A program made the translations under genes and the position numbers. This document shows, piece by piece, positions 2,993 to 30,912 of a stretch of 64,000 bases of DNA. The stretch comes from a bacterium (GTDB lineage: Bacteria > Patescibacteriota > Minisyncoccia > Phycocordibacterales > UBA6899): positions 2,349-66,348 of the forward strand of contig JAYUQG010000014.1 in the NCBI GenBank assembly GCA_043756865.1. The letters run 5' to 3'. Below the pieces are notes generated by a model that saw only the letters and a list, made by a program, of their open reading frames with translations, searched no databases and had not been told where the DNA came from. The stretch's first letter is position 1. Every line of letters begins with the position of its first letter.

Positions 2993-3074
2993 ATAATTAG
3001 GATACTGCAATTGTAACATGCACCACAAAATAAGATGCAAAAGAAGGATGTGGACGAGAAGTGGATATCCGCTC

Positions 3075-3429: not shown

Positions 3430-3562
3430 AAAAAACTTTCATAATTTTGATGGATTTCAGTTTTTTCGCGTCGGGAGTGTTTGAGAAGGTGTATGAGTTA
3501 TACATCATCCAAACCTTTCGACGATGAAAAAACTGAAAGGCGCAAAATTTGAAAGTTTTTTA
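3430..3562 (+). repeat. R2 structured element, copy 1 (nested inverted repeats), just past the stop of gene 3560..5467
   Basis: outer stem AAAAACTTTC (3431-3440) with GAAAGTTTTT (3551-3560); inner stem TTCAGTTTTTT (3456-3466) with AAAAAACTGAA (3527-3537); conserved GTGTATGAG, CCAAACCTTTC and ATTTTGATG blocks shared with copy 2 at 35054..35160. Confidence 0.5.
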
Positions 3563-8370: not shown

Positions 8371-8502
8371 TAGCAGTCGCAAAATTTTGGATGGAATGCG
8401 AGGCGACAAGGGTATGATGTTTGAGCGGACGTACTCCTCGTACGTTCGCCAAACTCATGCCCGCAGTCAACAAAGCAGTCCGCCAAAATTTTGCGACTGC
8501 TA
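8371..8502. repeat. perfect 20-bp inverted repeat pair flanking a 92-bp spacer
   Basis: TAGCAGTCGCAAAATTTTGG at 8371-8390 and its exact reverse complement CCAAAATTTTGCGACTGCTA at 8483-8502; the right arm overlaps the stop codon of the ABC ATPase gene; the spacer carries its own imperfect hairpin GGACGTAC-TCCTC-GTACGTTC. Confidence 0.5.
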
Positions 8503-9828: not shown

Positions 9829-9838
9829 GGCTCCCTCT

Positions 9839-9844
9839 ATTATA
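9839..9844 (-). promoter_or_regulatory. -10 TATAAT box 10 nt upstream of the ABC ATPase start codon
   Basis: minus-strand reading GATTCTCTTCTATATAATAGAGGGAGCC-ATG. Confidence 0.4.
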
Positions 9845-9917
9845 TAGAAGAGAATCAAAACCTCCCATGGGGAAACCCACTTTTCATAAGTGCGCTACAG
9901 AATTAATGCACTTTGAT

Positions 9918-12121: not shown

Positions 12122-12130
12122 ACTCTCTCT

Positions 12131-12136
12131 ATTATA
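12131..12136 (-). promoter_or_regulatory. -10 TATAAT inside the palindrome CTCTCTATATAATAGAGAGAG, 9 nt before the FN3 gene start
   Basis: minus-strand reading TCTCTATATAATAGAGAGAGT-ATG; the palindrome CTCTCTATA/TATAGAGAG could also be an operator. Confidence 0.4.
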
Positions 12137-12171
12137 TAGAGAGACCTCGTTCACGAAAAGGCACAACCCTC

Positions 12172-15100
12172 TTAATTCGCAATAAAGTAGTTAGTCCCCG
12201 AGTGTGTGGTTGCAGCCGTACCGTTTGGAACTCCAAGCCCCCAATACACGTCTTTAAAGAACGGGTTTGTCGACGTAGGCTTCGTCACGCCGATATTATA
12301 CGGATTACTCGTAGTTGCGAGGAGGTTACAACCCGCACATCCCGAATAGGTGAAGGTTGAAGTGGCATACTTCTGTTGGTTGACGGCAATTGTCGAAGAG
12401 GCTGCGGTCATCGGAGACCCTGACAACAAGAGATTCAAGATTGTATTTCCCGTGTTTGTCACTGTCGTTGTCGAATTTGCCGCACCCGTATCTGCGCCTA
12501 CGGTAATTGAGCCGTAGTTCAGGCTTGAAGGAATGGTCAGCCCCTTAAGTGTGTACACATCCTGTGATGAGGATGCTCGTGCATGCGAGTTCGACGTATC
12601 CCATACGTCGATGAGCGCCTGCCAGTTTTCCGCTACGAATGTACTTCCAAAGTCAGTTGGGTCTGCAAAGTAATACATATCCGCGGTGCATGAAACCGTA
12701 CAGGAGTTCCCTGAACAGTTAATAAAGCTACATGAACTGGTGCTGATTTGATAACAGTTATTGTTGTCGGCGGTGCAGGCTGTCGAAGAAGATAGTCCCG
12801 AACGGAAAAACGTTGAGGATGCAAAAGAGAGGTCTGCATAACCGTTGTAATCAGTAACAGTTGAAGTCGCAAAAATCGTCGTTGTGGCACCTTCCGTCAG
12901 TGCAATGCTTGCGTTGTTGTTGAATGAGAAATTAGAAAGGACTGGTGCATGCAAAATGCGCAACTCAGCAACCTTGGTGTAATTATCAAGTGCACTACCT
13001 GAATTGGTGGTACGGAAACAGTAGGCATCCTGTGACGCAAATGCCGTCATCTGGAAGTTATATTCCACTTCAGTAAATTCACCTGATGCAAGCGACACAT
13101 TGCCCGTTTGATTTGACGGGTCCTCAAGTATTTGGCCGTAAGTAAACGTTTGCCCCGTCGGGATAGACAGTAATTGTGTTGTCGAAGACTTGTCACTGAA
13201 CTGTGTAGATGTTTTCATACATGCAGCACCTGAGCCACAACCCGCTCCGGAAGTCGTGGGTACGTCAACATAGCTTCCCCCAGATACTGATTCACAATTC
13301 GGTGAAACCGACTTCGGTGCAACCTGTAGTCTGAAGTTATTATTGTTAATTGGTGCGCCCGAATTTCGCACGGTCACGCGGAGGCGGAGATTTTCGTTAA
13401 TGAGCTGATTTGCCAGTGTTGTATTTTCAGCTGTCTTCCATGTTGCACCAGAGTCCGCCTGTTCTAACCCAAATACTGCGCCCGGTGCCGTGGCAATGTA
13501 CTCTCGAGCAGACGGGATATCCCAGCCTCCATGCTGACCCCAATATGCAAATCCTATCCCACCTGACGTATATGAGGAATCTGTGGCAGATGTTGTGGCA
13601 AATACGCTACCTGCTGAGTCGTACACGGTCACATTAATTTGATTGTTCGAGAGCCAGTTGATCGATGCCTCATACCACCCTGTCGCGTATGTGACACTGG
13701 TTGTTGCAAGTTGCGTCGCTCCGTCATTGCGACCATTATTTGCCGCATTCTTTGCTATGACGACTTTATCTGTCCCCGAAAATGGGGTGAGGCACACAGC
13801 ATAATTTTGATGCAAAGTTATGGGAGATTGGATAGCGAAAAGAAAACACGGCTCATTGGATCCACCGGCTGCAATATCAATATACTGAAAGAACCTAATC
13901 GTAGTATCGCGCCCCACTCCAGCAGACATCTGCCCGATACCGTCGGTGGTCTTTCCTGAAGCCTCATTACCCAGAGAGGCATCAATGCCACGTGTACGCT
14001 CGTAATTAAAGGCTGTAGATTGCTCAAAAAGAGTAGTGTTTCCAGAATATTCTGACATACTTCCATCCTCGAAATCGTCAAAGAATTTGAACGTACTGGT
14101 GCCGCTGGTTCCTCCGGCTACCGTCGCATGGCCGTAGTACATAAAGATATCTGCCATACCGGAAGCAGGAAGTGCCGGTACTTTCACCCATACGGTTGAT
14201 GATGCTGCTGCAGTAAGGCTCTCTATCCAATACGGAATAGATGTCGTTCCGGACGAGTCCGTGAATCGTAAATCATCGAAGTCACTTTGCATATCAGAAT
14301 CGTAGACAACATTAAATTTCACCTCGATGTTTACCTCAGACGAGGTTGCGTTGTTGTTGATTCGCACGCGCTTACGCTTTGACCAATTTTGGTCATACCA
14401 TTCAGTCGAAGGAACACCCTCTGCTCCGTTGTCATTTCGCCATCGGTAAGTCCGCTGATCAGAGAACAGACATGAACTATCGGTCCATCGGATAGACCCA
14501 CATCCATCATTTCCGTCGTTATCACGGGACTCAAGCGCCATATTGCCGTATTCACTTGCAAAAGTGATGGCATTTGTTGTCGTACCGATACGCGAAACAT
14601 TTGCTCCTTCTATTGCTGTGGTTGTGGCAAATCGTACGTAGAATATTTGACCTGACGCATTTTGGTCTATGGTGGTTGACGCGATGGTGATCATGCTGCC
14701 ACCCGATAGTCCGAGCTCAAAGTCCCCGTTTGAGAGTGAGGTGATGGTCGTCGTGCCACTCATATCAAGTCCCGCGGTATTCATGTTTCGGAACTGATAG
14801 TACTGCGCATTGATGTATGAGGAGCTGAGTGAAAGCCCATAGTTACCTGTCGTCGCACGATCAACTGTTGTAGACGCCGTACTAATACCTAACATCTGGA
14901 GCGTTGATGCATTTGAGAATGCTGCAGCCGCAGAAGGACCAAACCGCACATTCACCTGACGCGAACTACCGCCGAGTGCGGTGCCGTCGAAATCGGTGGC
15001 GTAGCTCCAATAGTCGGTACCCGTTGTGCGCGTGTATGCTCCATAAATGTGGAGAGTACCATCCACCGCTGCATGGTCTTGTGCATACACCGAAGTACCC

Positions 15101-18100
15101 GTGCCAAGCTCGTATGCAGCTGCAGAAGAATTCCAGTTGCGCACTATCGTGTTTGTACCAAGACGGATTATGCCATAGAGGTCTCCACCTGCTGTTTTGC
15201 TGTTCATGTTCAAACTGGTGCCTGAGTTGAGTGCGAGTCGGGAACCACTCCACGTAGTGGAGGCACCACCCAGATTGTTGGTAAATATTCCTCCGACTGC
15301 AAGTGCAGAAGAAGATGCTTGGATGAAGTTTCCGCTTGCAATAGTCATACTTCCTGTTGTTGTCGCAGATGCAGAAATATTCACAGTCGCAGCAGGAGCT
15401 CCTGCGACATACACTCCCGTAAGCGTTGAATTTCCTAGTGCCACAAGCGACGTTCCTGAGGTAGGGTTGAATGTTACAAGCGACGTCGTGGCTACGGCAA
15501 TGGTACCCGTCGCGATAAATGACCCACCAACGGTAAATGCTGCATTGGGGAGCGTTGAAGTTCCTGATGCAAAAATGACGTCGCCGGTAGCTGTGGCATT
15601 CGTATCAGTAAATGTAAACGTTCCTACGTCTGCGATAAAGAGATTGGCAAGACTCGAGCCATTCATGCGTATGATTCTTCCCGACGATGTGGCAGTCATA
15701 CGAATAGTTCCTCCATTTGCTGTCACTCCCCCACTTTGATTGTTGAGGTCTGTTCCGATTGCGAGTACGCCCGTCGGTAGTGTCGTGGTGCCGTTTTTCA
15801 AAAGTACTGCCCCTGTTGCGGTTGCATTTGTATCGAGGAAGGACCACCCGCCTCCGACTCCATCGAATTCAAGGTTCGCAAACGCAGAGGTAAGAGCGCG
15901 GATATTTTTCCCCGTTGCGGTAGACGTAAATTTCACCACGCCGGAATTGTGCAAGAATACACCGCCAGAGTTATCAAAAGTCCCGCCCACGGCAAGCGTG
16001 CCCGATGGGAGTGTTGTGGTTCCCGCAGAGAAAGTAAGGTTATTCGAGGTAGTTCCGACACCACCAATATTCCATGTACCACCACTGCCGCTCATGGTCA
16101 TGTTGTAAAACGTGAGTGAAGATGATGCCGAAACAAACTTGCCTGTTGTCGATGCGTTAAAGAAAAATGTTGAATTCGCAGGTGCAACCGAAGCCCCGCT
16201 CGCTGCGTAGAAAGAGCCGGCCAGTGTGTGCGTCTGTGTACCCGCCGCACTCCACGTCGAACTTGCGTACAGTTTCACCGTACCATCACGATCACTGCCC
16301 AGTGCATTACCATGTACGGTTACATCCCCTGCAGGTGCAAAGACTTTGCTGGTCCAAACAATCAGTGTGGTGTTCGATGGAAGCACAAGCGTATCTGGTG
16401 CTCCGGTGGTTGCCTTGAAACGAATATCGGTGTCTTGGTCGGAATCGTATTGATTCATGTTTGCAATCGAAAGTGCTGTTCCTCCTTCGTGGCGCACAAT
16501 AACTCGATCGCGATAGAGATGCATGTTTGCGATATTTGTTGCGGGGTCAACCGTGACGTTTGCCGCGGTAGTTGAACTGTTGGTGTCGAGATAAAGTGTC
16601 AGCACATCCCCTGGGTTAAAGACGACACTCGAGATTGAAAAAGCTCCCGTCGTGGAATTACAAGCCGATGTATATGCTCCAGCACCCTGTACTCGCAGTC
16701 GTACCGTTTGGGTCGACCCATCACAGGTTGGACCACCAACAGGAGTAATTCCCTCATCACCATAAACGTTACCTGAAATGGTAATATTCGCGGCTGAGTC
16801 GTCCCACACAATGTAACCGGGATCACCCCCTGGGTCAGAGTCAAACGCTTCGCCCGCAAGCACACCGAGTGAGGTCGGAGTCCCCGCAAAACGCCAAATT
16901 GATGCTGAGACTCCGGTGGCCTTAACGTTAAACCCTGAGCCCACACCTGTTGAAGTCCCAAAATAATTACGACTGAATATCTTAAGGGGATTTGCATCAA
17001 TTGTCGCACCCGCAACGGTAATCATACTTCCAGCCGCAACCCCAAGTTCGAAGTCTACGTCATCCATGAGATTCACAACTGGTGTTCCCGAAAAATTGAG
17101 TCCATTTCCGTCCACCCCACGGAAGCGTACGTACTTCATAGTTGTCGAACCACCAGAAATATTGAGTGCGTAGGTACCGAGCGTTTGTATGCTAAGGCTT
17201 GTCGATGCAGTATTTGTCCCGAGTATTTCAAGAGCACCGGTACCGGAAATAGAGATACTTGAGGCAGTGGCAAAGCGCACATTTGCCTGACGCGAGCTAA
17301 CGCCAAGTGCGGTGCCGTCGAAATCAGTGGCGTAACTCCAATAGTCAGTGCCTGCGGTACGCGCGTACGACCCCCAAATATACAGTTCGCCTGAAGTACT
17401 CGCATGATTCTGTGAATACAGACTCCCCGTAGCTGCGACGGCGGTCGTTGTTGCCGACGAGGCCCACATGCTTATCTTTGTACTTCCCCCCACTTGGAGT
17501 GTTTCATAGCGGTCACCCCCAAGAGCCTTCGTGTTCATTGCTGAAGTGACTCCAGAGTTCAAGTAGAGAGTCGAGCCTGTCCACGTCGTTGCACTTCCGC
17601 CTACAGCGTTGGTAAATACACCGCGCACTTCAAGTGTTGTGCCCGATGCCATGACAAACGATGATACCTGTGTGATGGAGAAGTTATTCGTAGTGGTTGC
17701 ATTTCCGAGTATCGTCCATCCGCCGATTGCAGCATTAAATGCTGCATTGTAAAACGCTGATGTACTCGGTGTAATTGTGCGTCCAGTGGTAGTTGCGACA
17801 AAAGAAACGGTTCCTGCGGACGGGGTATATGTTCCCTGATTGTACCAGTCACGATAAATATTAAAGGCGGCGCTATCAGACCCAACCAATGTTGCACTGC
17901 TCCTAATAATGAGGTCACCTTCGACATTCACTATGGGGTCATTTGTGGTAACGGTGGTCGTTCCACTATTTACTCCATCCCCCACCGTTAGGCTATTTCG
18001 CACGGTAAATGTTCCTGCCGAAAGCGAATATGTCGGACCACCCGCTCCACTTGGCGCAAGATAGAGACGATAATAATTTGCCGCAGCAACCGTCGTATTT

Positions 18101-21100
18101 GCAGTCGAGCTAAATCGAAAAACGGAAACCTCAGGATTCAGTGTTCCCGTAATCACCAAGGGAGTGGCGCCTCCTGTCAAATTCCACGCAGAGGGAACAC
18201 CTGCGTTAAGTGTATGCCCAGCAGTGACCGTCATTATGGTGGCTATAGAGATTGTCGAAGAACCGGTCTTCGTCGTTGTGCCACCCGCACCATTTCCAAA
18301 ATTGAGGTTATTGAAACTCCAGTTCGTGTTCCCCCCAAAAGTGCCTCCATTTGCAAATGTGACACTACCACCCGTCATAGCGACTGTACCAGCTCCCGTC
18401 ATATTGACGCCAGAGATAGTCATCGAATTTGCACCAACGAGTGTTCCCTGTGTGACCGTCAAATCATTTCCCGTGTTTGTCGTTTGGTTTACTGACCACT
18501 CCCCGCCACTTCCATTAAACACGAGATTCCAGAAATTAATCGGCGTAATACCCACGAGCAACTTCCCTGTTGTGGTGGCAGTAAAGGTGAATGTCGAAGA
18601 TGCAGCCGTAAAGGTTGCTCCTGCATCAAGGGCGAACCGCCCACCTACCGAGTGTGATTCATTTCCCTGTGCAGTAAATATGGCATTGTTGTCGACGTGG
18701 AATGTACCGTCCCAGTTGTTTCCCGAACCACCGGAGTTCAGTGTGATATTGCCATTTGGAATAAAGGTTTTTGCATTCCAGACCCAAAATTCTGTTTCTG
18801 GATTCACTGCAAGCGTGTTGGGTCCCGTTGTTGCGGCAGAGTATGAAATATCACTGTCATTGCCCGCGTCATATGCATTCATGTGCTCAATCCCAAGTGC
18901 AGCGGTATCTTCGTGTCGGACAATCACGCGGTCTTGATAAAGATTAATGCCGGTTAAGTCCGCAGATGCAGACCTCGTAACCAACGTTGCTTTTCGCCCA
19001 CCGTTTGTATCGAGGTAAACGGTCATCACCGTATCTCCAATAAACGTCACCCCCGGTACCGTATAGGTACCGTTAGCTGACGAGCATGGTGCTGCAAAGT
19101 TGCCGAGCCCGTTCACTCTGACGCGCACATTTGGTGTCACGTTATCACATGTTGTTGTGGACATCGGGGTTACGCCGGCGTCGCTATAAACCGTTCCTGA
19201 AATGGAGATGACAAAAATACTGTCGTCCCATCTTATGTATCCGGGGTTACCGCCAGGATCATTGTCATTGGACTCTCCTGCAATATTTCCATAATGCTGC
19301 CTAAAACGGATGAATGATGATCCCGCCGGAGTTCCGATTTCTGTAACGTTAAATGCCAAAATCGCTGTGGTTGTTGCAAACCGCACGGTGAACAGTTGAA
19401 TTCCGGTGTTCTGGTCGACGGTCGTCGACGCAATGGTGATTCCACTACCGCCATTCGTAGCAACTTCAAAATCTCCATAAGACAGTGAGGTGACGGTTGT
19501 TGTACCCGCAAGCTCAAGTCCGCGCGCACCCATGTTTCTAAACTGATAATAATTCGCATTCAAGGTTGCGTCTGAAAGTGCAACGACAAAACTTCCCGTT
19601 GTTGCGCGGTCTATGGTGGTTGAAGCGGTCGTGGATCCGATTATTTGGAGAGTTGCATTTGTGGTAAAGCTGGAAGTTGCGGTGGGTGCAAAGCGTACAT
19701 TTACCTGTCTTCCACTCCCCCCAAGTGCAGTGCCGTCAAAATCTGTCGCAAAACTCCAGTAGTCTGTTCCCGTTGTGCGAATATAGTTCCCACCAATAAA
19801 GAGCGAGCCATCTAATGCACTATCATCTTGGGAATACATCGACGACGTAGGGGTGAACTGGTACGTATTGCTCGAAGAATTCCACATGCGTACATTTGTC
19901 CCCAGAGCGAGACGCAGTGTCGCATAGCTATCGGCGCCTGTTGTTTTTGTATTCAGTGTGTAGCTCGTGCCCGAATACAGTGTGAGTGTAGTGCCGGTCC
20001 ACGTCGTCGAAGCACCACCGACATTATTGGTGAACGTACCTCCAACTGCAAGTGCAGTTGCCGTGGCCTGCGTGAAACCACCGGAAATAAGTGTAAATGC
20101 CGCCGTTGCCGTGGCGTTCCCGGTAATGCTTATGGTTGCAGTTGGCGTCGCGAGCACATTCACCGTTGCAAATGTTGAAGGTCCCGCAGAAACAGTTTTT
20201 GTTCCTGAAGCAGGGTTAAAATGTACCGCTCCGGACCCGGAAACAAATGCTCCAGTGGCTGAGAAGTTTCCTCCAATCGCAAAATTCGCCGTGGGTAATG
20301 TTGTGGTGCCCGCGGCAAATATTACATCACCTGTGGCGGTCGCGTTTGCGTCGGCAATTGTAAATCCGCCTGCGTTCGCGACAAAAAAGTTTGCAAGTGT
20401 TGAGCCGGAGAGGCGCACGATGCGGCCGGAAAGCACCGAGGTCATGCGCAGTGTTCCTCCGTTTGCAACGAATGCTCCTGATTGATTATCAAAGGTATTT
20501 CCCGCTTCGAGTGTTCCACTTGGCAATGTGGGTGTACCTGCAGTGATATAAAATGTTCCCACCGTGGTTGCATTTGTATCTTGGAATGTCCAAGCACCTC
20601 CAGCGCCAGCAAATAATATGTCATTCCACAACGAACCGTTCGCGCGCACATTTTTGCCCGATGCGGTGGAGGTGAAGCGTACAACACCGGAATTGTGGAC
20701 GAACGCCCCTGCTGTGTTTGAGAATGATCCCCCTATCGCCAGAGTTCCTGAGGGTAACGTAGTAGTTCCTACACCTGTAATTGCGAAATCATTGGTTGTG
20801 GTTGCATTGGTGTTCTGCCAAATCCATGTCCCTCCTACGCCACTAAAGGTCGTGTTGTAAAAATTCGATACACCTTGGTTTATTGTTTTGCCGGTTGTTG
20901 TTGCAGCAAAATCAACGGTACCCGTAAGTGAGGTAAAGGTTCCCGTGTTGTTCCAATTTTCCAGCACCGTCAATGTGTATGCGCTGCCGGCAGAAAGTGT
21001 GTCATCTGCTCCTATTACAATGTTTGTGGCCTTCACCGAGGATCCGAGTGTGAGCGTTTTTGCGGTACCATTGACCACCACATTCCCGAGGTCCTGCTTT

Positions 21101-24100: not shown

Positions 24101-27100
24101 GGGTCGATACTCAGCAGCGACACAGGTGAAGCTCCGAATCCCGCACCATTACCGGGGAGTGCAGTATCGGGGACCAGTGCCCACGATGATGTCGAGGTGA
24201 GATATTCTATTTGATACCCCACTGTTCCATAGACCTCACTATCGCTAAAACGCAGATTTCCCCACACCGAACCAATTGTTTTAATATTAAAATCAATTGC
24301 TGAAGAATATATGGTTCCCGTAGTTGAGCCGTTGATGAGCATCACGGCATCTGTGGCCGTTGAGTGTACTCCTGAAAGCGTGTCGAGTTGGAACTGATCA
24401 CGTGTGGTTTGGTGCCACGTTGATACCACTACCGCCGTATCAACGGTGAGACTGCGCGCGGTGGACCACTCACCCCACTGGTTAGACCCGCTCGAATCCT
24501 TTGCTCGTACTCGCCACCAATACGTACTACCGTTTGTGAGGGCAGTTGCTGATTTGAACTGAATTTTGTCTCCTGAATTAAAGGGTGCCTTGTTTGCAGG
24601 GGTATCCACATTTTCAAAAAGATCGGGGTCTGCGAGTGAATCTGAGTCTATAACGGAAGTAGTAAATGTCGCTGAAAATGAAATCTGCACTTGGTAATCA
24701 AGGTCATTGACCTCCCCATCGGTCGCGGTGAATTGAAATGATGGAGTTGTGGTGCCCACCTTCTCAAACGAAAATGGCGCAGATTGGACTGTTACCCCCG
24801 GTGATGCGTTGGTCAAGACAAGCGGATAATTCACATAGGTATCAAGCGGTGTACCATCTGACTTCACCATCCTAAAACAATACCGCGTATTCGGTGCTGC
24901 CAGATTGTCCTGAACGACCCAATCCCATTCTCCGACTCCACCAATCGGAACTTGTGTCCGTGTAGTCGTGGAATTATTTTCTTCAGCGTAAGCCTCGGCC
25001 ACTGTAGAGGATGAAAGGAGGAGCGTCGTGAGCGTCGCCCCATCGGAAACTCCCGTGTTATTGAATCCCCGCCATAGTGCGGTTGAGGAAGCGAGCGGGG
25101 AAACATCACTCCAATTCAATGCGGACTCGCAAATGGGGTCACTTGAATACTGGAGCTTAAATGCCTGAACTCCCACAGTGGAGGTCGCATTCCCCACAGA
25201 CACATTCATACGCAGACGAATTTTGTCGGTGGGTTTTAGGCTATCAAGCGATGTTTCAATCGGAGTATTTTCCGCGAGATCAGACCCACCAGGAGGCCAA
25301 GGGTCTGTCGGAGTCAACAGATTTGCGTTATTGTAGACCCGATAAGAATCTTGTGTAAATACAGGAACCCCAGAAAGTCGTTTTCCAAATATTACCTCGA
25401 CGTACCGAGGAAGCTGGCTTTCCGTAGAAAAACCCGTTAGGTCTACTGAATGCACATGTGTTGTTGGTGCCGCCTGTACACCAATACGTCCGGGGGCGCT
25501 TTCAGACGACGCACCCGTTACCGCACCCGTCATGTCCGAGTACGTATGGTCAACAGCTCCACCCGTTCCCCCATACGTGCTTGATGCTTTCACAAACTTT
25601 CCATTGAGTGTGCCACCGATGTCAGAAATTCGTGACCAGCCCGCCGCGGGGTCATTGTCCCACATGGTTATCATGTAATTTGAAGTGCCCGTCGCGGTCG
25701 CAAGCTTTGCAAATAACATTTCCACGTTGGGTGGTTCGCTATTTACGAGTGGGGTATTTGTGGCCGTAAGTGTGTGTGTGTGGTTTTCAGCAGAAGGAAG
25801 CGGGGTCGACTGAGTCCCTCCGAGGCGTGAGCGATATCTCTGCGGTGAGACACCGACTGTTGAAGAACCAGTCATAGGATGGATGTGCGTGTTTGAACCT
25901 GTAGCGGTACCGGCAGTATTTTGACCAAACGGATAATATCCATCTTGTGGTGTGTATCGATTCCAACCGGTTGGCAATGAAGACGAGGCGATATCAAAAA
26001 GTGCAATAGCACCGGCGGGAATAGTTGCGGGTTCACCTGCACTATTTGCCTGAATGACACGCAGCTGTCGAGAAAGCGGAACCGTGCTGGTTGCCCCGAC
26101 GGATACAGAGAGAGTGTGTGCGTGGGATATACCCGCCAAGAGTGTATTCACTACTGAATTTTCTGTTACCCCCGTTGACCCTGTGTTGAAAACAGTTGCG
26201 GTGACTGAATGGGTGCTGGTGGGTACTCCTCCAAACCCCCCGTATGTAGACGACCCGAAAGGTAATCGTTCATAAAAGGGATCCGTCGTGAGACAGGACA
26301 CACACGTCCAAGTGGCAGGGATGGTGACATTGTCATCCCAAAAAAGCATCATCTTCCCTGCTGCATCTGACGCTATCTGCCACTTTCGCGCTTCCACAAA
26401 CGAGTCATCTTCCCCACCCATAGAAAGTGGGCCCATGAGATAAAGGTACGGTGAAACATCAGGAGCATCAAATGTATATGCAAAGTCAACCACTCCGCCC
26501 GCTTCCAACTTTGTCGGCCACGATGCAGTCATAAAGGTGTGTGCATCGTCGCCCCAAGCAAGCGTGGCATTCCCACGGTCAATCACGATAAAGTCGCCGG
26601 GGATGCGCTCGACAATGTTTCCCTCAAATGCCTCAATCGCGCGCACACGTATCTTCATCGGATAGTGCGCTAAGGGGAAGATGCGTGTTGGTCCCACACG
26701 TTCGATTACATAGGGTACATAATCACGTACTTCGAACGTATCGGTCACTTGGCTCGCGACATTCTCGTTCACATCGAGACGCACAAGTTTTGCTTTATAC
26801 GTTCCCGTTGCTGCCAGCGGTATGTCGTATGCGGCAGCATAGTCGGGAACATCTACTACATTGTTACCGTTGCACTTCCCCGATGCCGTGACGGGGACCT
26901 CCGTCTCAGTCCCTCCCGGTGTGGTCACCCACAGTTTAAGCGGTGCATCACAGATGGTATTTCCATTGTTCGAAAGTGCGGCCAGCGAAATATCGAGACG
27001 CTCACCGGGCAGGGAAATACTCTTCGCATAATTGATAGCTAACACACCCCAATAGAAATCGAACTCATCTGTGTACGTATCGCCCCCCTCTTCAATCTCA

Positions 27101-30100
27101 ATATGCAGTGTGTACTTGCCGGGGCGAACGGCTCCGGTGTCGTCTTTTAACTGGAGTGACCACTCCCCGCCCTCACCATACTTCACATCATACTCCGCAG
27201 GTTTGTCTCCAAAATGTGGGTGGCGCAGCATAATGCGTGCAACAGTAAATGACTGCACGCCGAGCAGCTTCCGCACACCCTGCATCAGGCCGCTTGATTG
27301 GCTCTTGTATTGAAATCGAAATGTCGGCTTTTGGTGTAACGAGAACTCACGCTCTTTGGAGAGTAGCGTATCGACATGCTCTTTATCTTTGCCATCATCA
27401 GTCACATCGAGTTTGCGATGCTCACCGGGAACCACAAACTCAGTCTCCCCAAGTTGTAGTGTCACAAGCGCAGCACCCGGGGCACGCGAAAGTGCAGCAC
27501 TCTCAAGCATACGCACGCCCGCCCGCCCCATACCGACACCCGCCTCCGAGAATGTTCCTGCGGGTATTGCCATGCCTAAAAACTGAGTCACACTTCCTGA
27601 AACAGCCCGGAGCGTAAAGCCAAGCGGAAACACTCCGCTCTTGGGAAGAAAGTGTGTGGCACCGGGGCTATTTCCCCGTCCATGACATGTTGATGAAGCA
27701 ATCATTGTCCCCTCTTCGTCATAGAGTCCAAATAGGACGGGCTCAGGTGTGGGAGCACACACGAGGGCAATGTGACTTGCATCAAATGGGGAACGATAAC
27801 TTCCACCCATAAGACTACGGGGTAGTATGCTCAATAAAGATTCGGGGGGGGTCATGAGTCCCCCAATCGGTTGAGTGTGCGCGTCCACGCGAAATGCCTC
27901 CGCACCATCCAGCGGTCCAGAGTTACACTGGTCGACAACAAAACTCGCTCCCGCGCGTCGACCGTCGATGGATTTTCGCGCGCCACTTGCACACAGTGCA
28001 GTGATGTCGGTACCATCGTTTCTCACTCCAACCGTAATCTTTCCAAGCGCGAGTCCAAAGAGCGATTCGGTGGTAGCAGAAGGGATTGGTGTCGGTGCTC
28101 CACCTTCACCTCCTACGAGTGTGAGTACTGCATCGCGGTCGAGGTCAACAAGTACACTGTCTGAAAGTGTTATCGGTCGACGCACAATCGAACCGAAAAT
28201 AGGGTCAATGGACTCAACCGTGCCGCCAACACCGATTGCGCCATGAACTGCCTCACTATCAAGCGCTGCAATAGCGAGCTCACGTTCGCCACCAATTCCT
28301 GGGAGTACGAAATGCTCCCCTGCATATCCCAACGGAACATAAACGGCAACGGGCGAAACGGCAATCACCGATGCGGTAATCGGTCCATCCGCATGCACAA
28401 TAGTGCTGGGTTGAATTCCAGAAAAGAGCGCACTCTCTCCCTGCTCCAGAGTAACTGATTGTTGGTCTTCAATTTCCACACGCACATGAGGAGCGAGGGC
28501 AAGTACATGGAGTGTCATGTCCAGTTGACTACCTCCAAACACTACGCCGCGTGGAGTTAGTGCCGTGGTGCGAAACGGAGTGAATTCATTCGAGCGCGAA
28601 GTTGCGAACTGATCTCCAAAATACACATATACACTCGACGTAGCTCCCGCAGATAGTTTGGGTACACGCACCCACGCAAGTCCACGCTGTTCTTCACTAT
28701 TAAATTCAGCAAGCCAATATGGAAGTTCTATCTTCCCACTTTCATCGACGAAACGAATATCGGAACCGGAAGCAGAAACATACTCCCAGAAGTCTGCGGA
28801 CATCCCCGCAAAATCAACAGGGATGGCAAACTCTCCGTCCGCGCTCACCGCACTGCTGTCCCATGTTATTGGTATGCGATGATTCCACGAACCACCCCAA
28901 TCAGTGTGGAGCAATCCGTACGCACCCGACTCTGCGGCTGCTTCGATTGCGAGATCCCCACGTGCATTGAGTGGCACATCCAGTGTGACGCGAAAGTACA
29001 TGGTCTGCCCCGGATTCAAAAGTACGGAGTCGGCGAGATATGACTCCGCACGAAGTGAGGATGGAATCAAGTCAACGGGCATTTCTGCAACCAAGAAATC
29101 AATCGCCTTTGTAAATATCCCGCTTTCGTCAGCAATGGCACCCCGTGTAATTGGTAAAGTCGTCCAACCATCGCGATAGCGCGTTTCTGTCTCAAGCCCG
29201 ACACCGACTCCTTTTGCAATACAATTTGTACCTTCGATATTCAGTGCGTCACATGTCGCACGCTCCCGCGTCTCCACGCAGCTATACGCATCCGATCCGG
29301 AGTCTCTCGTACTCTCGTTCTCCCAACCCGCTGCACAAAAATATCCCACGTCGTCATACTTCAGTGCGCTGCCCTGATAGGGAGTATTGTGTGACCAGCG
29401 CGACAAAGTGCGCACCGTTGCTCCCTCATCTTGAAAACGAAACTGTAATTTCAATACCTCCGCTTCGGTGCTCTCATTTGTCACGTTGACGTATGCATCC
29501 ATGGTGCCAAGTGCGTGGTACGTTTTTTTGTCGCTTTTTATGACAAGCTTCTGTCCCTCATGCGCCTCTCCATTGGTAAACAATATCGTTCCCTCTTCAG
29601 GCGTGACCAGTTGGTCGCGACGCGCCTTGCGTGCCTCAGCATCCCGCGCGGACAGTGTGCTCCTGATATTCGCACCCGAAAGCGCAAACTCTTCGGCAGA
29701 TGAGTTCAGTGTAGTGTCTTGATAACGCACGTTTACCCAGAGGCCGTCCACATACACCGCAGCATCCTCTTCACTTGCGCGGTCATACTCCAGCACAACC
29801 TTCAAGTCTGACAAATCATCCCACGTTGAAATATTTGGAAGTTCAAATTTGAGATACCCCGCACGTTTCGCGTTAGACAACTCCCCCCGAATCTCAGAAC
29901 TTCCGAGAAATTCCCAGCGACCTGCGAGATAGGCGCGCACAAGCACACGGTCATATTCCCCGCTGGAGTAAGCACCTCGTCCTGCGAGCGAGAGCTCGAG
30001 TGTTGCACCAGCAACTGCTTTACCCTCGAGTGTACCGCCGAGGCCAAACCCTACATACTCGGCGAGATGACATGTTTTTCCAAACGTACTGCAAAGGGAG

Positions 30101-30912
30101 ACCGAGTATGGGTCGGGTGACTGCGTCGACTCAGCAACCGCAGCAAGCGGTGTGCCCGACGCTTGAGTGCTTGATGCTGCATCAGCAGCGCTCACAGGTA
30201 GCGGGTTCTTTTCCAGAGATGGGTCAGGGCTCTGCACAACAGAGACTACTTTCTCTTCTGTCTCTATAAGTTCGGGGATAGGCGAGGAATCGCCCGAGGG
30301 TGCTGCGGCGACTTCGGGCACATCTTGCGCCAACACTTTTTCACCTGCAAGAAAACCTGAAAACATGTGGCGCACGCGCTGCATTAAAAATGCCTCGGGT
30401 GCGCCCTGAGGGGCCACAGTGTCCGCGGGAGTTACGGTGGGGGAAACTGACGGTTCTTCTGGTGTCAGGAGCGGCATGAAAGGATTCGGGGTCGAAACAC
30501 TTTCGTTCGGTATTATTTCGGAAGGAACCTCTGAAGGAGGCGGCGTGGTGTCTGCCGTATCGGGTGTGACTCCCTCCAGTGTGGGTACGTCTTCGCCCTC
30601 AGTAGTCGTACCTACTTCAAGTGAAGCTCCGAAGTATACATAGGCAGAATTCTCTCGGCTAAAATCTGCGAGCTCGGCGTCCATCGAGAGGTCTTGACCA
30701 AGAGAAAGTTCACCCCCCTCCCACCCTTCAGTGACAACATTCGACGGTGACACATACACATGGGCTTCTTTCTCCGCAAATACGAACTCTGAGAGAAACC
30801 AGAGGCCGAACACTACAGCACTAAGCGCGACAAAAGCCCGAAAACGCCTTCCTGTGTGCGAGGTGAAACGCCAATGAAACTGCTTTGTGTGGGTGCGCAA
30901 AAAATGAAACAT
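12172..30912 (-). CDS. giant (6246 aa) secreted adhesin-like protein: signal peptide, two DUF2341-like domains, at least three long super-repeats of beta-helix-like units, WxL-like C-terminus
   Basis: uninterrupted 18.7-kb ORF; signal peptide RFRAFVALSAVVFGLWFLSEFVFA; DUF2341-like segments (IRFVDESGKIELPYWLAEFNSEEQRGLAWVRVPKL and DLRFTDSSGTTSIPYWIESLTAAASSTVWVKVPAL); three copies of the YSQDxxAxDGxLxIxGxYxRTxGTDYWSxATDFDGTALG super-repeat; about 60-aa NxxGAFVxNSG... units; DNA 15.2-16.1 kb and 19.9-20.9 kb are clearly paralogous. Confidence 0.7.
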   Translation of the reverse strand: MFHFLRTHTKQFHWRFTSHTGRRFRAFVALSAVVFGLWFLSEFVFAEKEAHVYVSPSNVVTEGWEGGELSLGQDLSMDAELADFSRENSAYVYFGASLEVGTTTEGEDVPTLEGVTPDTADTTPPPSEVPSEIIPNESVSTPNPFMPLLTPEEPSVSPTVTPADTVAPQGAPEAFLMQRVRHMFSGFLAGEKVLAQDVPEVAAAPSGDSSPIPELIETEEKVVSVVQSPDPSLEKNPLPVSAADAASSTQASGTPLAAVAESTQSPDPYSVSLCSTFGKTCHLAEYVGFGLGGTLEGKAVAGATLELSLAGRGAYSSGEYDRVLVRAYLAGRWEFLGSSEIRGELSNAKRAGYLKFELPNISTWDDLSDLKVVLEYDRASEEDAAVYVDGLWVNVRYQDTTLNSSAEEFALSGANIRSTLSARDAEARKARRDQLVTPEEGTILFTNGEAHEGQKLVIKSDKKTYHALGTMDAYVNVTNESTEAEVLKLQFRFQDEGATVRTLSRWSHNTPYQGSALKYDDVGYFCAAGWENESTRDSGSDAYSCVETRERATCDALNIEGTNCIAKGVGVGLETETRYRDGWTTLPITRGAIADESGIFTKAIDFLVAEMPVDLIPSSLRAESYLADSVLLNPGQTMYFRVTLDVPLNARGDLAIEAAAESGAYGLLHTDWGGSWNHRIPITWDSSAVSADGEFAIPVDFAGMSADFWEYVSASGSDIRFVDESGKIELPYWLAEFNSEEQRGLAWVRVPKLSAGATSSVYVYFGDQFATSRSNEFTPFRTTALTPRGVVFGGSQLDMTLHVLALAPHVRVEIEDQQSVTLEQGESALFSGIQPSTIVHADGPITASVIAVSPVAVYVPLGYAGEHFVLPGIGGERELAIAALDSEAVHGAIGVGGTVESIDPIFGSIVRRPITLSDSVLVDLDRDAVLTLVGGEGGAPTPIPSATTESLFGLALGKITVGVRNDGTDITALCASGARKSIDGRRAGASFVVDQCNSGPLDGAEAFRVDAHTQPIGGLMTPPESLLSILPRSLMGGSYRSPFDASHIALVCAPTPEPVLFGLYDEEGTMIASSTCHGRGNSPGATHFLPKSGVFPLGFTLRAVSGSVTQFLGMAIPAGTFSEAGVGMGRAGVRMLESAALSRAPGAALVTLQLGETEFVVPGEHRKLDVTDDGKDKEHVDTLLSKEREFSLHQKPTFRFQYKSQSSGLMQGVRKLLGVQSFTVARIMLRHPHFGDKPAEYDVKYGEGGEWSLQLKDDTGAVRPGKYTLHIEIEEGGDTYTDEFDFYWGVLAINYAKSISLPGERLDISLAALSNNGNTICDAPLKLWVTTPGGTETEVPVTASGKCNGNNVVDVPDYAAAYDIPLAATGTYKAKLVRLDVNENVASQVTDTFEVRDYVPYVIERVGPTRIFPLAHYPMKIRVRAIEAFEGNIVERIPGDFIVIDRGNATLAWGDDAHTFMTASWPTKLEAGGVVDFAYTFDAPDVSPYLYLMGPLSMGGEDDSFVEARKWQIASDAAGKMMLFWDDNVTIPATWTCVSCLTTDPFYERLPFGSSTYGGFGGVPTSTHSVTATVFNTGSTGVTENSVVNTLLAGISHAHTLSVSVGATSTVPLSRQLRVIQANSAGEPATIPAGAIALFDIASSSLPTGWNRYTPQDGYYPFGQNTAGTATGSNTHIHPMTGSSTVGVSPQRYRSRLGGTQSTPLPSAENHTHTLTATNTPLVNSEPPNVEMLFAKLATATGTSNYMITMWDNDPAAGWSRISDIGGTLNGKFVKASSTYGGTGGAVDHTYSDMTGAVTGASSESAPGRIGVQAAPTTHVHSVDLTGFSTESQLPRYVEVIFGKRLSGVPVFTQDSYRVYNNANLLTPTDPWPPGGSDLAENTPIETSLDSLKPTDKIRLRMNVSVGNATSTVGVQAFKLQYSSDPICESALNWSDVSPLASSTALWRGFNNTGVSDGATLTTLLLSSSTVAEAYAEENNSTTTRTQVPIGGVGEWDWVVQDNLAAPNTRYCFRMVKSDGTPLDTYVNYPLVLTNASPGVTVQSAPFSFEKVGTTTPSFQFTATDGEVNDLDYQVQISFSATFTTSVIDSDSLADPDLFENVDTPANKAPFNSGDKIQFKSATALTNGSTYWWRVRAKDSSGSNQWGEWSTARSLTVDTAVVVSTWHQTTRDQFQLDTLSGVHSTATDAVMLINGSTTGTIYSSAIDFNIKTIGSVWGNLRFSDSEVYGTVGYQIEYLTSTSSWALVPDTALPGNGAGFGASPVSLLSIDPTVYATIRIRANLTNTTGTPVLFDWTIDWGFTVGTPTLYLPFSNAKLNTTTPTFEWTAADPQGDPIEYEIQWSTTSAFTSSTTRNSGVNLGFQNIQNATDTTPFNSSDRIRFTIQPGDALIASSTYFWRVRGRDPTGANTYSFYSETRSFTVDLSITIATWFQTVDDQFRTDTLSSLRLTGTGSTTVATTTDEVMLAYGEGTVQTPRFRIFDGITLGGEQTALSVGATIQWVIVKSSPLISQYILGTLGSDRDTNFQVYESGAWANLQETGTAAPSPQRRSFDVAYETVSGRAIAVTCDSSPTAGYRIWTGSAWSATGTVNLSFATNCEWVRLASHPISNEIIGLFRNTGSMYEAQVWNATTSSWGNATVLGSMRDIAHEGMAVEYENSGTDAVVVASNGINASFVWKSWNGASWTATATVALGDDFESGNLRRNKTNDDMALCYIDQDNDIGVIRWTGSTNTWAAFTELEITGQSFNGRPVDCQYETISGRTNYIMVPYADTTGTRWRFWDGVLYQGERNMASTGGTTFPTSFTNQLVRTSASGTMLGMFFDHVGTDYEYAELVGSSTWENHQTIEDTASVTASPFGEPFYMAPQSPLSVGTIIGTPIDYDDGIAPAWQRVKWDATTPGETTFMTQVQYQNASGTWALIPDTLIPGNSVGTTTSPISITALDTTLYNVIRLKGTLTCMSGVCPTLNDWTVEWAAGVRISGTARLHDLTSTVTSGTVAVAVNGSLQVGRTGTIANGDWFIDNVTVFPGNTLTVFISGANDFNEAVTVAKYTGPGDMGGMRISERWVTIGSASTTGQSISLTDLAKYDNSVSGSEDIFYDIDAGNDFNNCVVGSCLDSSIHVFSNTFRPATSTSETINTWDMRVNGFLFADTNTIKVSGSWGNLGGFTSNASTVIFNGTSSTRTIDSTGAATSTFYNVTFGESGNTATWNLSSAFVATGTVAMSFGTTSQGTNDITLQGDLTIGASGTFIKGTATTTFSGTAARIWTDNTAAKQDLGNVVVNGTAKTLTLGSSVKATNIVIGADDTLSAGSAYTLTVLENWNNTGTFTSLTGTVDFAATTTGKTINQGVSNFYNTTFSGVGGTWIWQNTNATTTNDFAITGVGTTTLPSGTLAIGGSFSNTAGAFVHNSGVVRFTSTASGKNVRANGSLWNDILFAGAGGAWTFQDTNATTVGTFYITAGTPTLPSGTLEAGNTFDNQSGAFVANGGTLRMTSVLSGRIVRLSGSTLANFFVANAGGFTIADANATATGDVIFAAGTTTLPTANFAIGGNFSATGAFVSGSGAVHFNPASGTKTVSAGPSTFATVNVLATPTATISITGNATATAAFTLISGGFTQATATALAVGGTFTNNVGGASTTWTGTTLTLYSGTSYTLNTKTTGADSYATLRLALGTNVRMWNSSSNTYQFTPTSSMYSQDDSALDGSLFIGGNYIRTTGTDYWSFATDFDGTALGGSGRQVNVRFAPTATSSFTTNATLQIIGSTTASTTIDRATTGSFVVALSDATLNANYYQFRNMGARGLELAGTTTVTSLSYGDFEVATNGGSGITIASTTVDQNTGIQLFTVRFATTTAILAFNVTEIGTPAGSSFIRFRQHYGNIAGESNDNDPGGNPGYIRWDDSIFVISISGTVYSDAGVTPMSTTTCDNVTPNVRVRVNGLGNFAAPCSSANGTYTVPGVTFIGDTVMTVYLDTNGGRKATLVTRSASADLTGINLYQDRVIVRHEDTAALGIEHMNAYDAGNDSDISYSAATTGPNTLAVNPETEFWVWNAKTFIPNGNITLNSGGSGNNWDGTFHVDNNAIFTAQGNESHSVGGRFALDAGATFTAASSTFTFTATTTGKLLVGITPINFWNLVFNGSGGEWSVNQTTNTGNDLTVTQGTLVGANSMTISGVNMTGAGTVAMTGGSVTFANGGTFGGNTNWSFNNLNFGNGAGGTTTKTGSSTISIATIMTVTAGHTLNAGVPSAWNLTGGATPLVITGTLNPEVSVFRFSSTANTTVAAANYYRLYLAPSGAGGPTYSLSAGTFTVRNSLTVGDGVNSGTTTVTTNDPIVNVEGDLIIRSSATLVGSDSAAFNIYRDWYNQGTYTPSAGTVSFVATTTGRTITPSTSAFYNAAFNAAIGGWTILGNATTTNNFSITQVSSFVMASGTTLEVRGVFTNAVGGSATTWTGSTLYLNSGVTSAMNTKALGGDRYETLQVGGSTKISMWASSATTTAVAATGSLYSQNHASTSGELYIWGSYARTAGTDYWSYATDFDGTALGVSSRQANVRFATASSISISGTGALEILGTNTASTSLSIQTLGTYALNISGGSTTMKYVRFRGVDGNGLNFSGTPVVNLMDDVDFELGVAAGSMITVAGATIDANPLKIFSRNYFGTSTGVGSGFNVKATGVSASIWRFAGTPTSLGVLAGEAFDSDPGGDPGYIVWDDSAANITISGNVYGDEGITPVGGPTCDGSTQTVRLRVQGAGAYTSACNSTTGAFSISSVVFNPGDVLTLYLDTNSSTTAANVTVDPATNIANMHLYRDRVIVRHEGGTALSIANMNQYDSDQDTDIRFKATTGAPDTLVLPSNTTLIVWTSKVFAPAGDVTVHGNALGSDRDGTVKLYASSTWSAAGTQTHTLAGSFYAASGASVAPANSTFFFNASTTGKFVSASSSLTFYNMTMSGSGGTWNIGGVGTTSNNLTFSAGTTTLPSGTLAVGGTFDNSGGVFLHNSGVVKFTSTATGKNIRALTSAFANLEFDGVGGGWSFLDTNATATGAVLLKNGTTTLPTGVLAIGTDLNNQSGGVTANGGTIRMTATSSGRIIRMNGSSLANLFIADVGTFTFTDTNATATGDVIFASGTSTLPNAAFTVGGSFIATGTIAVATTSLVTFNPTSGTSLVALGNSTLTGVYVAGAPAATVNISASATTTGSMTIASGNFIQASSSALAVGGIFTNNLGGASTTWSGSRLALNSGTSLNMNSKTAGGDLYGIIRLGTNTIVRNWNSSAAAYELGTGTSVYAQDHAAVDGTLHIYGAYTRTTGTDYWSYATDFDGTALGGSSRQVNVRFGPSAAAAFSNASTLQMLGISTASTTVDRATTGNYGLSLSSSYINAQYYQFRNMNTAGLDMSGTTTITSLSNGDFELGLSGGSMITIASTTIDQNASGQIFYVRFATTTAIEGANVSRIGTTTNAITFASEYGNMALESRDNDGNDGCGSIRWTDSSCLFSDQRTYRWRNDNGAEGVPSTEWYDQNWSKRKRVRINNNATSSEVNIEVKFNVVYDSDMQSDFDDLRFTDSSGTTSIPYWIESLTAAASSTVWVKVPALPASGMADIFMYYGHATVAGGTSGTSTFKFFDDFEDGSMSEYSGNTTLFEQSTAFNYERTRGIDASLGNEASGKTTDGIGQMSAGVGRDTTIRFFQYIDIAAGGSNEPCFLFAIQSPITLHQNYAVCLTPFSGTDKVVIAKNAANNGRNDGATQLATTSVTYATGWYEASINWLSNNQINVTVYDSAGSVFATTSATDSSYTSGGIGFAYWGQHGGWDIPSAREYIATAPGAVFGLEQADSGATWKTAENTTLANQLINENLRLRVTVRNSGAPINNNNFRLQVAPKSVSPNCESVSGGSYVDVPTTSGAGCGSGAACMKTSTQFSDKSSTTQLLSIPTGQTFTYGQILEDPSNQTGNVSLASGEFTEVEYNFQMTAFASQDAYCFRTTNSGSALDNYTKVAELRILHAPVLSNFSFNNNASIALTEGATTTIFATSTVTDYNGYADLSFASSTFFRSGLSSSTACTADNNNCYQISTSSCSFINCSGNSCTVSCTADMYYFADPTDFGSTFVAENWQALIDVWDTSNSHARASSSQDVYTLKGLTIPSSLNYGSITVGADTGAANSTTTVTNTGNTILNLLLSGSPMTAASSTIAVNQQKYATSTFTYSGCAGCNLLATTSNPYNIGVTKPTSTNPFFKDVYWGLGVPNGTAATTHSGTNYFIAN

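Follow-up and report, generated by a model that had tools for sequence, protein, structure and literature searches.

An 18.7-kb open reading frame (ORF) on the minus strand of a 64-kb window (the whole stretch of 64,000 nucleotides analysed here, from contig JAYUQG010000014.1) was found to be a real, intact gene for a single protein of 6,246 amino acids (aa), referred to below as the giant; it is neither an assembly error nor the outcome of recent repeat expansion. The giant is probably encoded by a vertically inherited gene of Lloydbacteria-like Parcubacteria (Paceibacterota, within the candidate phyla radiation, CPR), and would be exported by Sec as a nearly all-beta surface fibre contacting a host, a partner cell or a substrate.

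The frame (12172..30912) begins with ATG and continues for 6,246 codons plus the stop with zero internal stops, just as an earlier interpretation made from the letters of the DNA (the sequence-only reading) had described it. Overall, what that reading had observed was confirmed in part, and its interpretation was likewise supported in part. The chance of 6,246 stop-free codons was calculated as p ~1e-130 at a stop frequency of 3/64, and the G+C content of the gene (~50%) was flat along its length. The same reading had called the DNA highly repetitive, and this was not confirmed: the longest exact internal repeat was 20 nt, no 21-mer was found twice, and BLASTN self-comparison of the gene gave only one 710-nt pair (66% identity) and one 97-nt pair (84.5%). 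Because the DNA copies are too diverged, with no exact repeat beyond those 20 nt, collapse or expansion of repeats during assembly is not a concern. A GGAGG was noted ~15 nt before the ATG of the giant. The region upstream of the start (30913-31884) is an unusually long non-coding stretch of ~970 nt containing five terminator-like hairpins against ~1.2 expected, and no Rfam family was assigned to it.

Using the last 1,400 aa of the giant, fragments annotated as 'DUF2341 domain-containing protein' were retrieved from Candidatus Paceibacterota and Parcubacteria. In a one-genome-per-species collection at least 530 loci encode a relative, all of them in Patescibacteria-type metagenome-assembled genomes (MAGs), the best relatives (63% identity) belonging to Candidatus Lloydbacteria and further ones to Kaiser-, Adler-, Nomura- and Sungbacteria. 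An orthologue of 6,229 aa (P0115, MAG UBA6899) was aligned in a single high-scoring segment pair (HSP) over giant aa 47-6245 at 50.9% identity, and another of 6,106 aa (P0143) was full-length and colinear at 34-39%; two further loci, L008 and L009, each gave a single HSP, which spanned 5,250 aa (54% identity) and 5,170 aa (60%), respectively. Among the orthologous loci with enough upstream DNA, the frame was open to the edge of the fetched DNA, that is, for at least 4,700-5,250 codons, in 60 of 62. Residues 1200-6246 of the giant matched P0115 at 46-72% identity with 0-2% gaps, and the first ~1200 residues matched orthologues at 22-41% with indels, one orthologue being without aa ~400-1200. 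At the level of sequence, these alignments showed that domain order and length are tightly conserved over residues ~1200-6246 and that the first ~1200 are variable. The statement that this is one of the longest bacterial ORFs had to be moderated: the gene is large, but proteins up to 85,804 aa have been described (bioRxiv 10.1101/2023.11.21.568195), and its own orthologues are of the same size.

An artefactual origin of the 18.7-kb frame, by chimeric assembly or by read-through of a pseudogene, was given a negligible probability. It could draw on the orthologue of one related MAG (L003), which is broken by an in-frame TAA, an N run and a frameshift, and on the many database homologues that are fragments at contig ends. 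It is opposed by the minute chance of an open frame of this length, by an independent assembly whose 6,229-aa orthologue is colinear with the giant from residue 47 onwards to the very end, and by the frames that are open in nearly all orthologous loci. The pseudogene and assembly-collapse readings were both rejected on the open frame, the same-size orthologues and the lack of long exact repeats. In L003 itself (GCA_964455445.1, 1-17257) the orthologue was called as four ORFs, with the N run masked; this break may reflect either a pseudogene or an assembly or masking problem, and is the exception among the orthologues.

The C-terminal half of the giant is dominated by three super-repeats (A, B and C). 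The motif YSQD..G.L.I.G.Y.RT.GTDYWS.ATDFDGTALG was recovered in three places, its W lying at aa 3719, 4525 and 5302, and each copy is part of a unit of more than 500 aa, of which the sequence-only reading had likewise counted three. In the protein self-comparison, A and C were 57-60% identical, and A and B, like B and C, 40-46%. The WSxATDFDG-type domains were placed at aa ~3693-3900 (copy A), ~4499-4710 (copy B) and ~5276-5486 (copy C), and are followed in copies A and B by an immunoglobulin (Ig)-like domain and a linker domain. Copy C contains the columns that vary least within the family (W, D-F-D-G and R, together with an invariant E), and was all-beta in the AlphaFold2 (AF2) model with a predicted local distance difference test (pLDDT) value of ~88. 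With a hidden Markov model (HMM) built from the solenoid units themselves, 10 confident units of ~77 aa and a few degenerate ones were detected, split 4 + 2 + 4 over A, B and C (four at aa 3335-3640, one each at 4110-4184 and 4371-4446, and four at 4918-5223), where the sequence-only reading had given dozens of roughly 60-aa beta-helix-like units.

The two DNA blocks at 15.2-16.1 kb and 19.9-20.9 kb, which had been singled out as paralogous and as a sign of recent unequal recombination, correspond to the beta-solenoid portions of copies C and A. Their paralogy was upheld, with an offset of ~4.75 kb, and their recent origin was not: identity was 56% for protein and 57.6% for DNA, and by codon position 63%, 75% and 34% at positions 1, 2 and 3 against a background of ~26%. 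This pattern is the signature of an old duplication under purifying selection. Across many species, the WSYATDFDG copies are equally spaced (~800 and ~770 aa apart, the last ~940 aa from the C-terminus) and group mostly by position. Because the same three copies with the same spacing are shared copy by copy among many species, the triplication is older than the divergence of these Parcubacteria lineages. Copy A of the window protein resembled copy C of the same protein (58%) marginally more than it did the nearest copy A of another species (55%), which allows for, and hints at, some old gene conversion.

Very little probability is thus left for the picture of an adhesin driven by repeats, in which recent unequal recombination produced the super-repeats and the copy number was possibly mis-assembled. 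The three paralogous units, the closeness of A to C and the slight preference of copy A for its own copy C would be in line with it. It conflicts with the 57.6% DNA identity and nearly random third positions of the very blocks named in its support, with the absence of any repeated 21-mer, with the constant spacing and mostly positional grouping of the three copies in many species, and with the same total length in orthologues. Recent duplication of the super-repeats was accordingly rejected on the diverged DNA, the positional grouping and the same-length orthologues.

Upstream of the super-repeats in the protein lies a 338-aa module (HxH module) made of three ~112-aa repeats with two HxH positions each, modelled by AF2 at pLDDT ~80-95. 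In 511 cluster representatives, proteins of 325 to 7,246 aa, it is present over its whole length. Among 151 modules, the twelve His columns (six HxH, two per repeat) were 81-100% conserved, and 10 of the 12 are kept in the window protein, the exceptions being S1566 and Y1791. An alignment-based scan of IMG/VR with the module gave 52 loci whose ORFs show the same triple HxH layout, and the family HMM scored 104-286 bits on proteins of viral contigs (L109 111, L116 104, L102 129). These IMG/VR proteins fall into PHROG families 5795 ('tail protein'), 8469 ('tail fiber protein') and 1800 ('tail collar fiber protein'), with E values from 1e-12 to 6e-29. One of them, L109, also resembles proteins annotated as tail fibre or tail collar in the phages P-SSM2, VvAW1, Sf-FR1 and phiAsp2. 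Solved structures of phage fibres and spikes show one Fe or Zn coordinated octahedrally by three HxH motifs (PMC6116203); by analogy, the HxH module probably folds from one chain into a fibre segment of pseudo-threefold symmetry, in which two metal sites would be buried.

Three of the IMG/VR proteins (L084, L104 and L100) are stand-alone, of 335-396 aa, and contain little beyond the triple HxH module, L084 and L104 scoring 149-286 bits. Being so close to the cellular HxH family, the L084 contig may derive from a CPR phage or may be a misclassified CPR fragment. The module is also present twice in a giant DUF2341 protein of Candidatus Woesearchaeota (P0116, MBN2422330.1, 5,808 aa), a member of DPANN (Diapherotrites, Parvarchaeota, Aenigmarchaeota, Nanoarchaeota and Nanohaloarchaeota). 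Three other giants of 6,061-7,246 aa (P0169, P0171 and P0202) carry it and are otherwise unrelated to the window giant; these four proteins, at least one of them archaeal, have one or two copies of the module each and share another C-terminus (...YDFE[FI]K[VI]P...Y.E[LI]K). This distribution suggests that the HxH module travels among lineages of episymbionts and viruses.

Directly downstream of the giant, six genes (window 759-12166, minus strand) keep one constant order in most of 82 related loci; the counts given in Table 1 are out of these 82 and are limited by the length of each locus. Two of them encode an ATP-binding cassette (ABC) ATPase and a permease of the MacB/LolCDE/FtsEX (type VII) kind, both of which scored below every equivalog cut-off. 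Another, u635, has at its end a Cys-rich module of two domains that is also the end of the giant (...YWG[IL]xVP...G.N.F.A), and hhalign of 56 giant C-termini with 39 u635 orthologues gave a probability of 100% and E 6.5e-41 over 260 columns. In the window, the ABC ATPase is separated from the permease by a gene on the opposite strand (6953-8251, +) for aminopeptidase P (Xaa-Pro aminopeptidase; E 1e-103 to PDB 5wze and 1a16), and the two adjoin in most other genomes. A minus-strand ORF at 6854-7600 ('u248') was rejected as a gene of the cluster, as it is not conserved, overlaps the plus-strand aminopeptidase P gene and is probably spurious. An exact match to the neighbouring gene was obtained in sequencing run SRR23617209.

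Table 1. Features of the giant and of the six conserved genes downstream of it (positions in the window)
Feature	Position	Strand	Evidence or remark
Only hydrophobic segment of the giant (aa 26-47)	30772..30837	-	Hydropathy scan; after a 25-aa basic N-region, before VFA/EKE
Pro/Ser/Glu-rich low-complexity linker (aa ~100-290)	30043..30615	-	Read from the translation
DUF2341 domain 1 (aa 716-776)	28585..28767	-	Pfam PF10102, E 1.2e-14, 55 bits
HxH module (aa 1515-1852)	25357..26370	-	Repeat alignment
Beta-sandwich (aa 1850-2034)	24811..25365	-	AF2 pLDDT ~77-90; paralogue in 1,790-aa ORF 44827-50199
Two fn3/Ig_Rha78A_N-like pairs (aa 2046-2198, 2311-2472)	23497..24777	-	PF25788 E 1e-10, fn3 E 8e-4
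Seven ~49-aa Trp-rich repeats (aa ~2520-2860)	22333..23355	-	Motif spacing; 20 Trp in aa 2501-3000
Super-repeat A (aa ~3258-4100)	18613..21141	-	Four 77-aa solenoid units, YSQD/WSxATDFDG domain, then Ig-like and linker domains
Super-repeat B (aa ~4101-4845)	16378..18612	-	Two clear solenoid units and degenerate ones, YSQN/WSYATDFDG domain, Ig-like domain
Super-repeat C (aa 4846-5519)	14356..16377	-	Four solenoid units, YAQD/WSYATDFDG domain
DUF2341 domain 2 (aa 5544-5619) and putative LamG-like jelly-roll (aa ~5620-5820)	13453..14283	-	PF10102 E 1.4e-22, 80 bits
C-terminal two-domain Cys-rich module (aa ~5990-6246)	12175..12945	-	Ends YWG[LI]xVP...G.N.F.A
fn3/PAP_N exported protein, 514-aa ORF	10622..12166	-	Pfam; directly 3' of the giant; adjoining in 74/82 loci
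ABC ATPase, MacB/LolD/FtsE type, 452 aa, C-terminal extension	8500..9858	-	69/82 loci
MacB_PCD and FtsX permease, 402 aa	5615..6823	-	65/82 loci
u635, exported 635-aa protein with the C-terminal module of the giant	3560..5467	-	62/82 loci
u362, signal peptide, two E-set-like beta-sandwiches, transmembrane (TM) segment, basic tail	1952..3040	-	52/82 loci
u393, Cys-rich repeat (DUF4215), Big_6, dockerin	759..1940	-	49/82 loci

The N-terminal hydrophobic segment is most likely a Sec signal or a signal-anchor. A signal-anchor is favoured because the segment is 21 residues long and preceded by a positively charged N-region, and cleavage stays possible because the 'A-EKE' context after the segment is also present in P0115 and P0143. 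The Pro/Ser/Glu-rich linker that follows could act as an envelope-spanning spacer. Overall, the giant is acidic and rich in Thr, Gly, Ser, Ala and Asn. It ends with ...HSGTNYFIAN, without an LPXTG sortase signature, without a hydrophobic segment after aa 863 and without a C-terminal TM segment. No Pfam match to two-partner secretion/haemagglutination (FhaB) or repeats-in-toxin (RTX) domains was obtained in the giant, NCBIfam gave nothing meaningful, and sequence-profile searches of PDB with two family alignments gave nothing below E 0.5.

Two DUF2341 modules had been predicted, and both were verified above the Pfam gathering cut-off of PF10102 (23.4 bits). The first lies in the variable N-terminal region and is 29% identical to the second DUF2341 region. 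After the second, the AF2 model shows a beta-sandwich of a size that fits LamG; in the window protein, LamG/Laminin_G_3 (PF13385) gave no Pfam match at E<=1, and in the orthologue P0010 a precomputed PF13385 match stands between DUF2341 matches. Two beta-sandwich domains lie between the LamG-like domain and the C-terminal module, and the AF2 model of aa 5047-6246 was all-beta with pLDDT 88. The domain scan proposed with the sequence-only reading thus yielded DUF2341 twice and LamG not at all by Pfam, and pectate lyase, PbH1 or other beta-helix models were likewise without a Pfam or NCBIfam match at E<=1 in the giant. The ten 77-aa repeats and the short, regularly spaced strands of the AF2 model are compatible with some beta-solenoid.

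Between the HxH module and the super-repeats, the AF2 model of aa 1501-2700 was reliable for aa ~1520-2030 only. The beta-sandwich at aa 1850-2034 was 44% identical (tblastn, E 1e-30) to part of the ORF at 44827-50199. The domain between the two fn3/Ig pairs (aa 2197-2309) recurs at aa 2870-2986 with 35-39% identity by self-BLAST. The Trp-rich repeats at aa ~2520-2860, over which the AF2 model was poor, are a possible candidate for a beta-propeller.

A contact or adhesion-fibre role was adopted as the best reading of the giant because of its export and all-beta modular build, its lectin-type (DUF2341/LamG) and phage-fibre-type modules, its one variable end, and the biology of the phylum: in cultivated Patescibacteria (Saccharibacteria) adhesins are needed for epibiotic growth (PMC10633639), and proteins above 4,000 aa with DUF2341 have been noted in Patescibacteria and, like those with FhaB, read as adhesion proteins (PMC11809585). 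Under this reading, the giant would be threaded out through Sec by means of its single N-terminal hydrophobic segment, which would most likely remain in place as a signal-anchor while the Pro-rich linker crosses the envelope; alternatively, it would be cleaved at VFA/EKE and held by the conserved C-terminal module that is common to u635. It would project a long rigid array of beta modules, in which a DUF2341/LamG lectin-like module, a phage tail-fibre-type triple HxH module with probably two buried metal ions, fn3/Ig spacers, a probable propeller and three solenoid-plus-WSYATDFDG units would be combined, and this array would contact glycans or proteins on the host, the partner cell or the substrate. 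The neighbouring MacB-type transporter and the small exported proteins would assemble, hold or service the giant.

Several points weigh against a contact fibre. The label of adhesin, which the sequence-only reading had already applied, stands as the most reasonable inference in the sense of a surface or adhesin-type role, and it draws on the kinds of domain present and on how distant relatives live; among the domains identified in the giant, none is a binding or enzymatic domain for which a ligand has been demonstrated. About 80% of the protein is without a Pfam, NCBIfam, PHROG or PDB sequence match, and Foldseek on two 1,200-residue models returned generic Ig/fn3 chains only, with template modelling (TM) scores of ~0.1. 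The HxH module of the window protein gave no match to Pfam Collar (PF07484) or to PHROG and no tblastn match in GenBank phages, so that its relationship to phage tail-collar fibre proteins is distant and is drawn transitively, at the level of profiles. The distal end of the giant and its functional tie to the ABC transporter are proposals. Finally, hardly any indels or changes in copy number are seen, in contrast to typical variable adhesins, and a structural envelope component would fit this equally well.

This last point leads to the main rival explanation, regarded as unlikely though it deserves attention, in which the giant is a fixed-length building block or 'ruler' of the envelope (an S-layer-like lattice, a sheath or a division-associated scaffold) instead of a host-binding adhesin, and the MacB/FtsX-type neighbour would act on envelope assembly in the manner of FtsEX. 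Length and domain order kept almost without indels over ~5,000 aa among species at 40-50% identity, a constant copy number of the super-repeats, and the conserved synteny with a type VII ABC transporter (MacB/LolCDE/FtsEX-like) all speak for such a block. S-layer proteins were also present among the many weak Foldseek matches (ranks 32 and 48), but at TM scores of ~0.08 and amid generic Ig-chain matches. Wherever relatives of a module could be identified (DUF2341/LamG and phage tail-collar fibre), the module is of a binding or fibre type, and variability such as that of the N-terminal 1,200 aa is more usual at an end that determines specificity; both favour the contact fibre over the envelope block. 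It is quite improbable that the giant is in addition a depolymerase, with tailspike-like solenoid-plus-WSYATDFDG units that digest the envelope polysaccharide of the host besides binding it, as part of a glycan-degrading or predatory tool. The succession of solenoid repeats and the domain that varies least within the family (invariant W, D-F-D-G, R and E), the phage tail-fibre-type modules elsewhere in the protein, and the proposal that Omnitrophota giants combine adhesion with carbohydrate degradation (bioRxiv 10.1101/2023.11.21.568195) would agree with a degrading activity, but no glycoside hydrolase, lyase or peptidase was matched in Pfam or NCBIfam at E<=1, no PDB sequence relative was obtained, and super-repeat C was without a match in GenBank phages.

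The sequence-only reading had also described the C-terminus as WxL-like. WxL proteins contain two W-x-L motifs, the distal one being [LIV]TWxLxxxP. If the giant were of this type, its C-terminus would be bound, without covalent links, by the cell wall and by a WxL-interacting protein in the way known from Lactobacillales; this was considered very improbable. The comparison is invited by the C-terminal motif Y-W-G-L-G-V-P, by the sharing of the C-terminal module between two proteins of one cluster, and by candidate partners, namely the TM-anchored two-beta-sandwich protein u362 (3 of 37 orthologues with weak WxLIP_HBD matches) and a 448-aa ORF (39358-40704, minus strand) with sub-threshold matches to WxLIP_PGBD (E 0.086) and WxLIP_HBD (E 0.019) in the right order. 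However, WxL (PF13731) was not matched at E<=1 by the window protein or by any of 56 orthologous C-termini, and only one motif (YWGLGVP) is present, whose family consensus is YWGIxVP, with Ile in most orthologues and one residue fewer before Pro. The matches of the 448-aa ORF are too weak to interpret, and those of u362 are scattered over many generic E-set families. Classification as a WxL-type surface protein was rejected, as no WxL model matched and the partner matches were weak and non-specific. A docking role analogous to that of WxL is possible for the C-terminus of the giant; membership of the WxL family is not.

A more far-reaching reading of the seven genes is offered tentatively and with low confidence. 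The giant and the six downstream genes would form a fixed-length host-contact organelle found throughout Parcubacteria, with a shaft of tail-fibre parts, mechanotransmission by the type VII ABC transporter, and a fibre module exchanged with DPANN and viruses. The shaft parts would then be the single-chain triple HxH modules, stapled by metal, and the solenoids, and the ABC transporter would drive assembly or movement.

The ORF at 44827-50199 (minus strand; 1,790 aa) is without a Pfam family; besides the domain that is 44% identical to giant aa 1850-2034, it has a weaker second copy of it. It sits in a run of unannotated ORFs (39358-51953) that may encode further surface proteins. One cohesin-domain and two dockerin-domain proteins were identified (31885-33372, 35180-36946 and 759-1940, all on the minus strand), which suggests a cohesin-dockerin assembly of surface proteins in this CPR genome. 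Upstream of the giant, the minus strand at 34300-34971 and 36997-38841 encodes a collagen-triple-helix-repeat protein and two tandem FGE-sulfatase-domain paralogues, and an HSP20 gene (33380-33895) is also present there. The credible genes between 759 and 60276 are almost all on the minus strand, and the cumulative GC skew falls steadily to ~60 kb and then turns. Scans of the 64-kb window for tRNA genes and Rfam families gave no matches.

Giant DUF2341 surface proteins of CPR are already in the literature, and orthologues of the giant are already deposited under that generic name, so that such a protein in a CPR genome, taken alone, is expected and not surprising. What is added here, by comparison of sequences, is an orthologous group of fixed architecture with a conserved seven-gene block, a C-terminal module shared by the giant with a second protein of the block, and an HxH module that ties CPR and DPANN giants to phage tail fibres; none of these three was found in the literature searched, the coverage of which was incomplete. 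The giant bears on the question of how Parcubacteria, the largest and least cultivated part of CPR, attach to or interact with other cells. An 18.7-kb gene maintained in a small genome at near-constant length and order over hundreds of species must do something important, and its conserved partners (the MacB-type transporter and the second protein with the same C-terminal module) provide concrete, testable handles. The HxH link between CPR/DPANN giants and phage tail fibres suggests a shared toolkit for touching other cells.

The closest described proteins are the giants reported with Patescibacterium danicum (above 4,000 aa, with DUF2341 and/or FhaB; PMC11809585), which belong to the same phylum-level group and share with the window giant the size class, DUF2341 and an inferred role in adhesion or host interaction. 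For them, no full-length homologues were found and rapid domain reshuffling was suggested, whereas the window giant is the opposite, with colinear orthologues, near-constant length and a conserved neighbourhood; the FhaB domain of some of them was not detected in it. The Omnitrophota giants (bioRxiv 10.1101/2023.11.21.568195) are likewise giant gene products of ultra-small bacteria with a proposed attachment to other cells, but have numerous TM regions and SecA-like helicase domains and reach more than 30,000 aa, whereas the window giant has one N-terminal hydrophobic segment and no such domains.

Ebh/Embp, SiiE, the Mobiluncus 7,651-aa adhesin and Apilactobacillus Giant1-5 are, like the giant, very long exported chains of beta domains, and SiiE and Bap-type fragments were among the generic Foldseek matches of its models. 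Compared with these giant Gram-positive and Gram-negative adhesins, the window giant lacks an LPXTG/sortase or type I secretion system (T1SS)/RTX signal and a long array of near-identical repeats, is heterogeneous in its domains and is fixed in copy number. RTX/T1SS adhesins have an HlyB-type ABC neighbour, whereas that of the giant is of the MacB/FtsX type. In MshQ-type proteins of mannose-sensitive haemagglutinin (MSHA) or type IV pilus-like loci, DUF2341 is followed by a LamG-like domain. In the giant, DUF2341 domain 2 is followed by a putative LamG-like domain; the giant is several-fold larger, and its conserved block contains no pilus genes.

DPANN giants such as the Woesearchaeota protein MBN2422330.1 resemble the window giant in size, DUF2341 annotation and the 338-aa HxH module; the HxH module alone could be aligned, the rest and the C-terminus (...YDFE[FI]KVP...ELK) being unrelated. 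Phage fibres (PHROG 5795, 8469 and 1800; the P-SSM2 tail fiber and the VvAW1 tail collar fiber protein) show, as the giant does, HxH repeats in a Gly/Thr/Ser-rich beta context. In T4 gp37/gp12, P2 gpV and R-pyocin fibres, the HxH metal sites are built from three chains, whereas in the giant three HxH repeats are present in one chain, inside a cellular protein of 6,246 aa.

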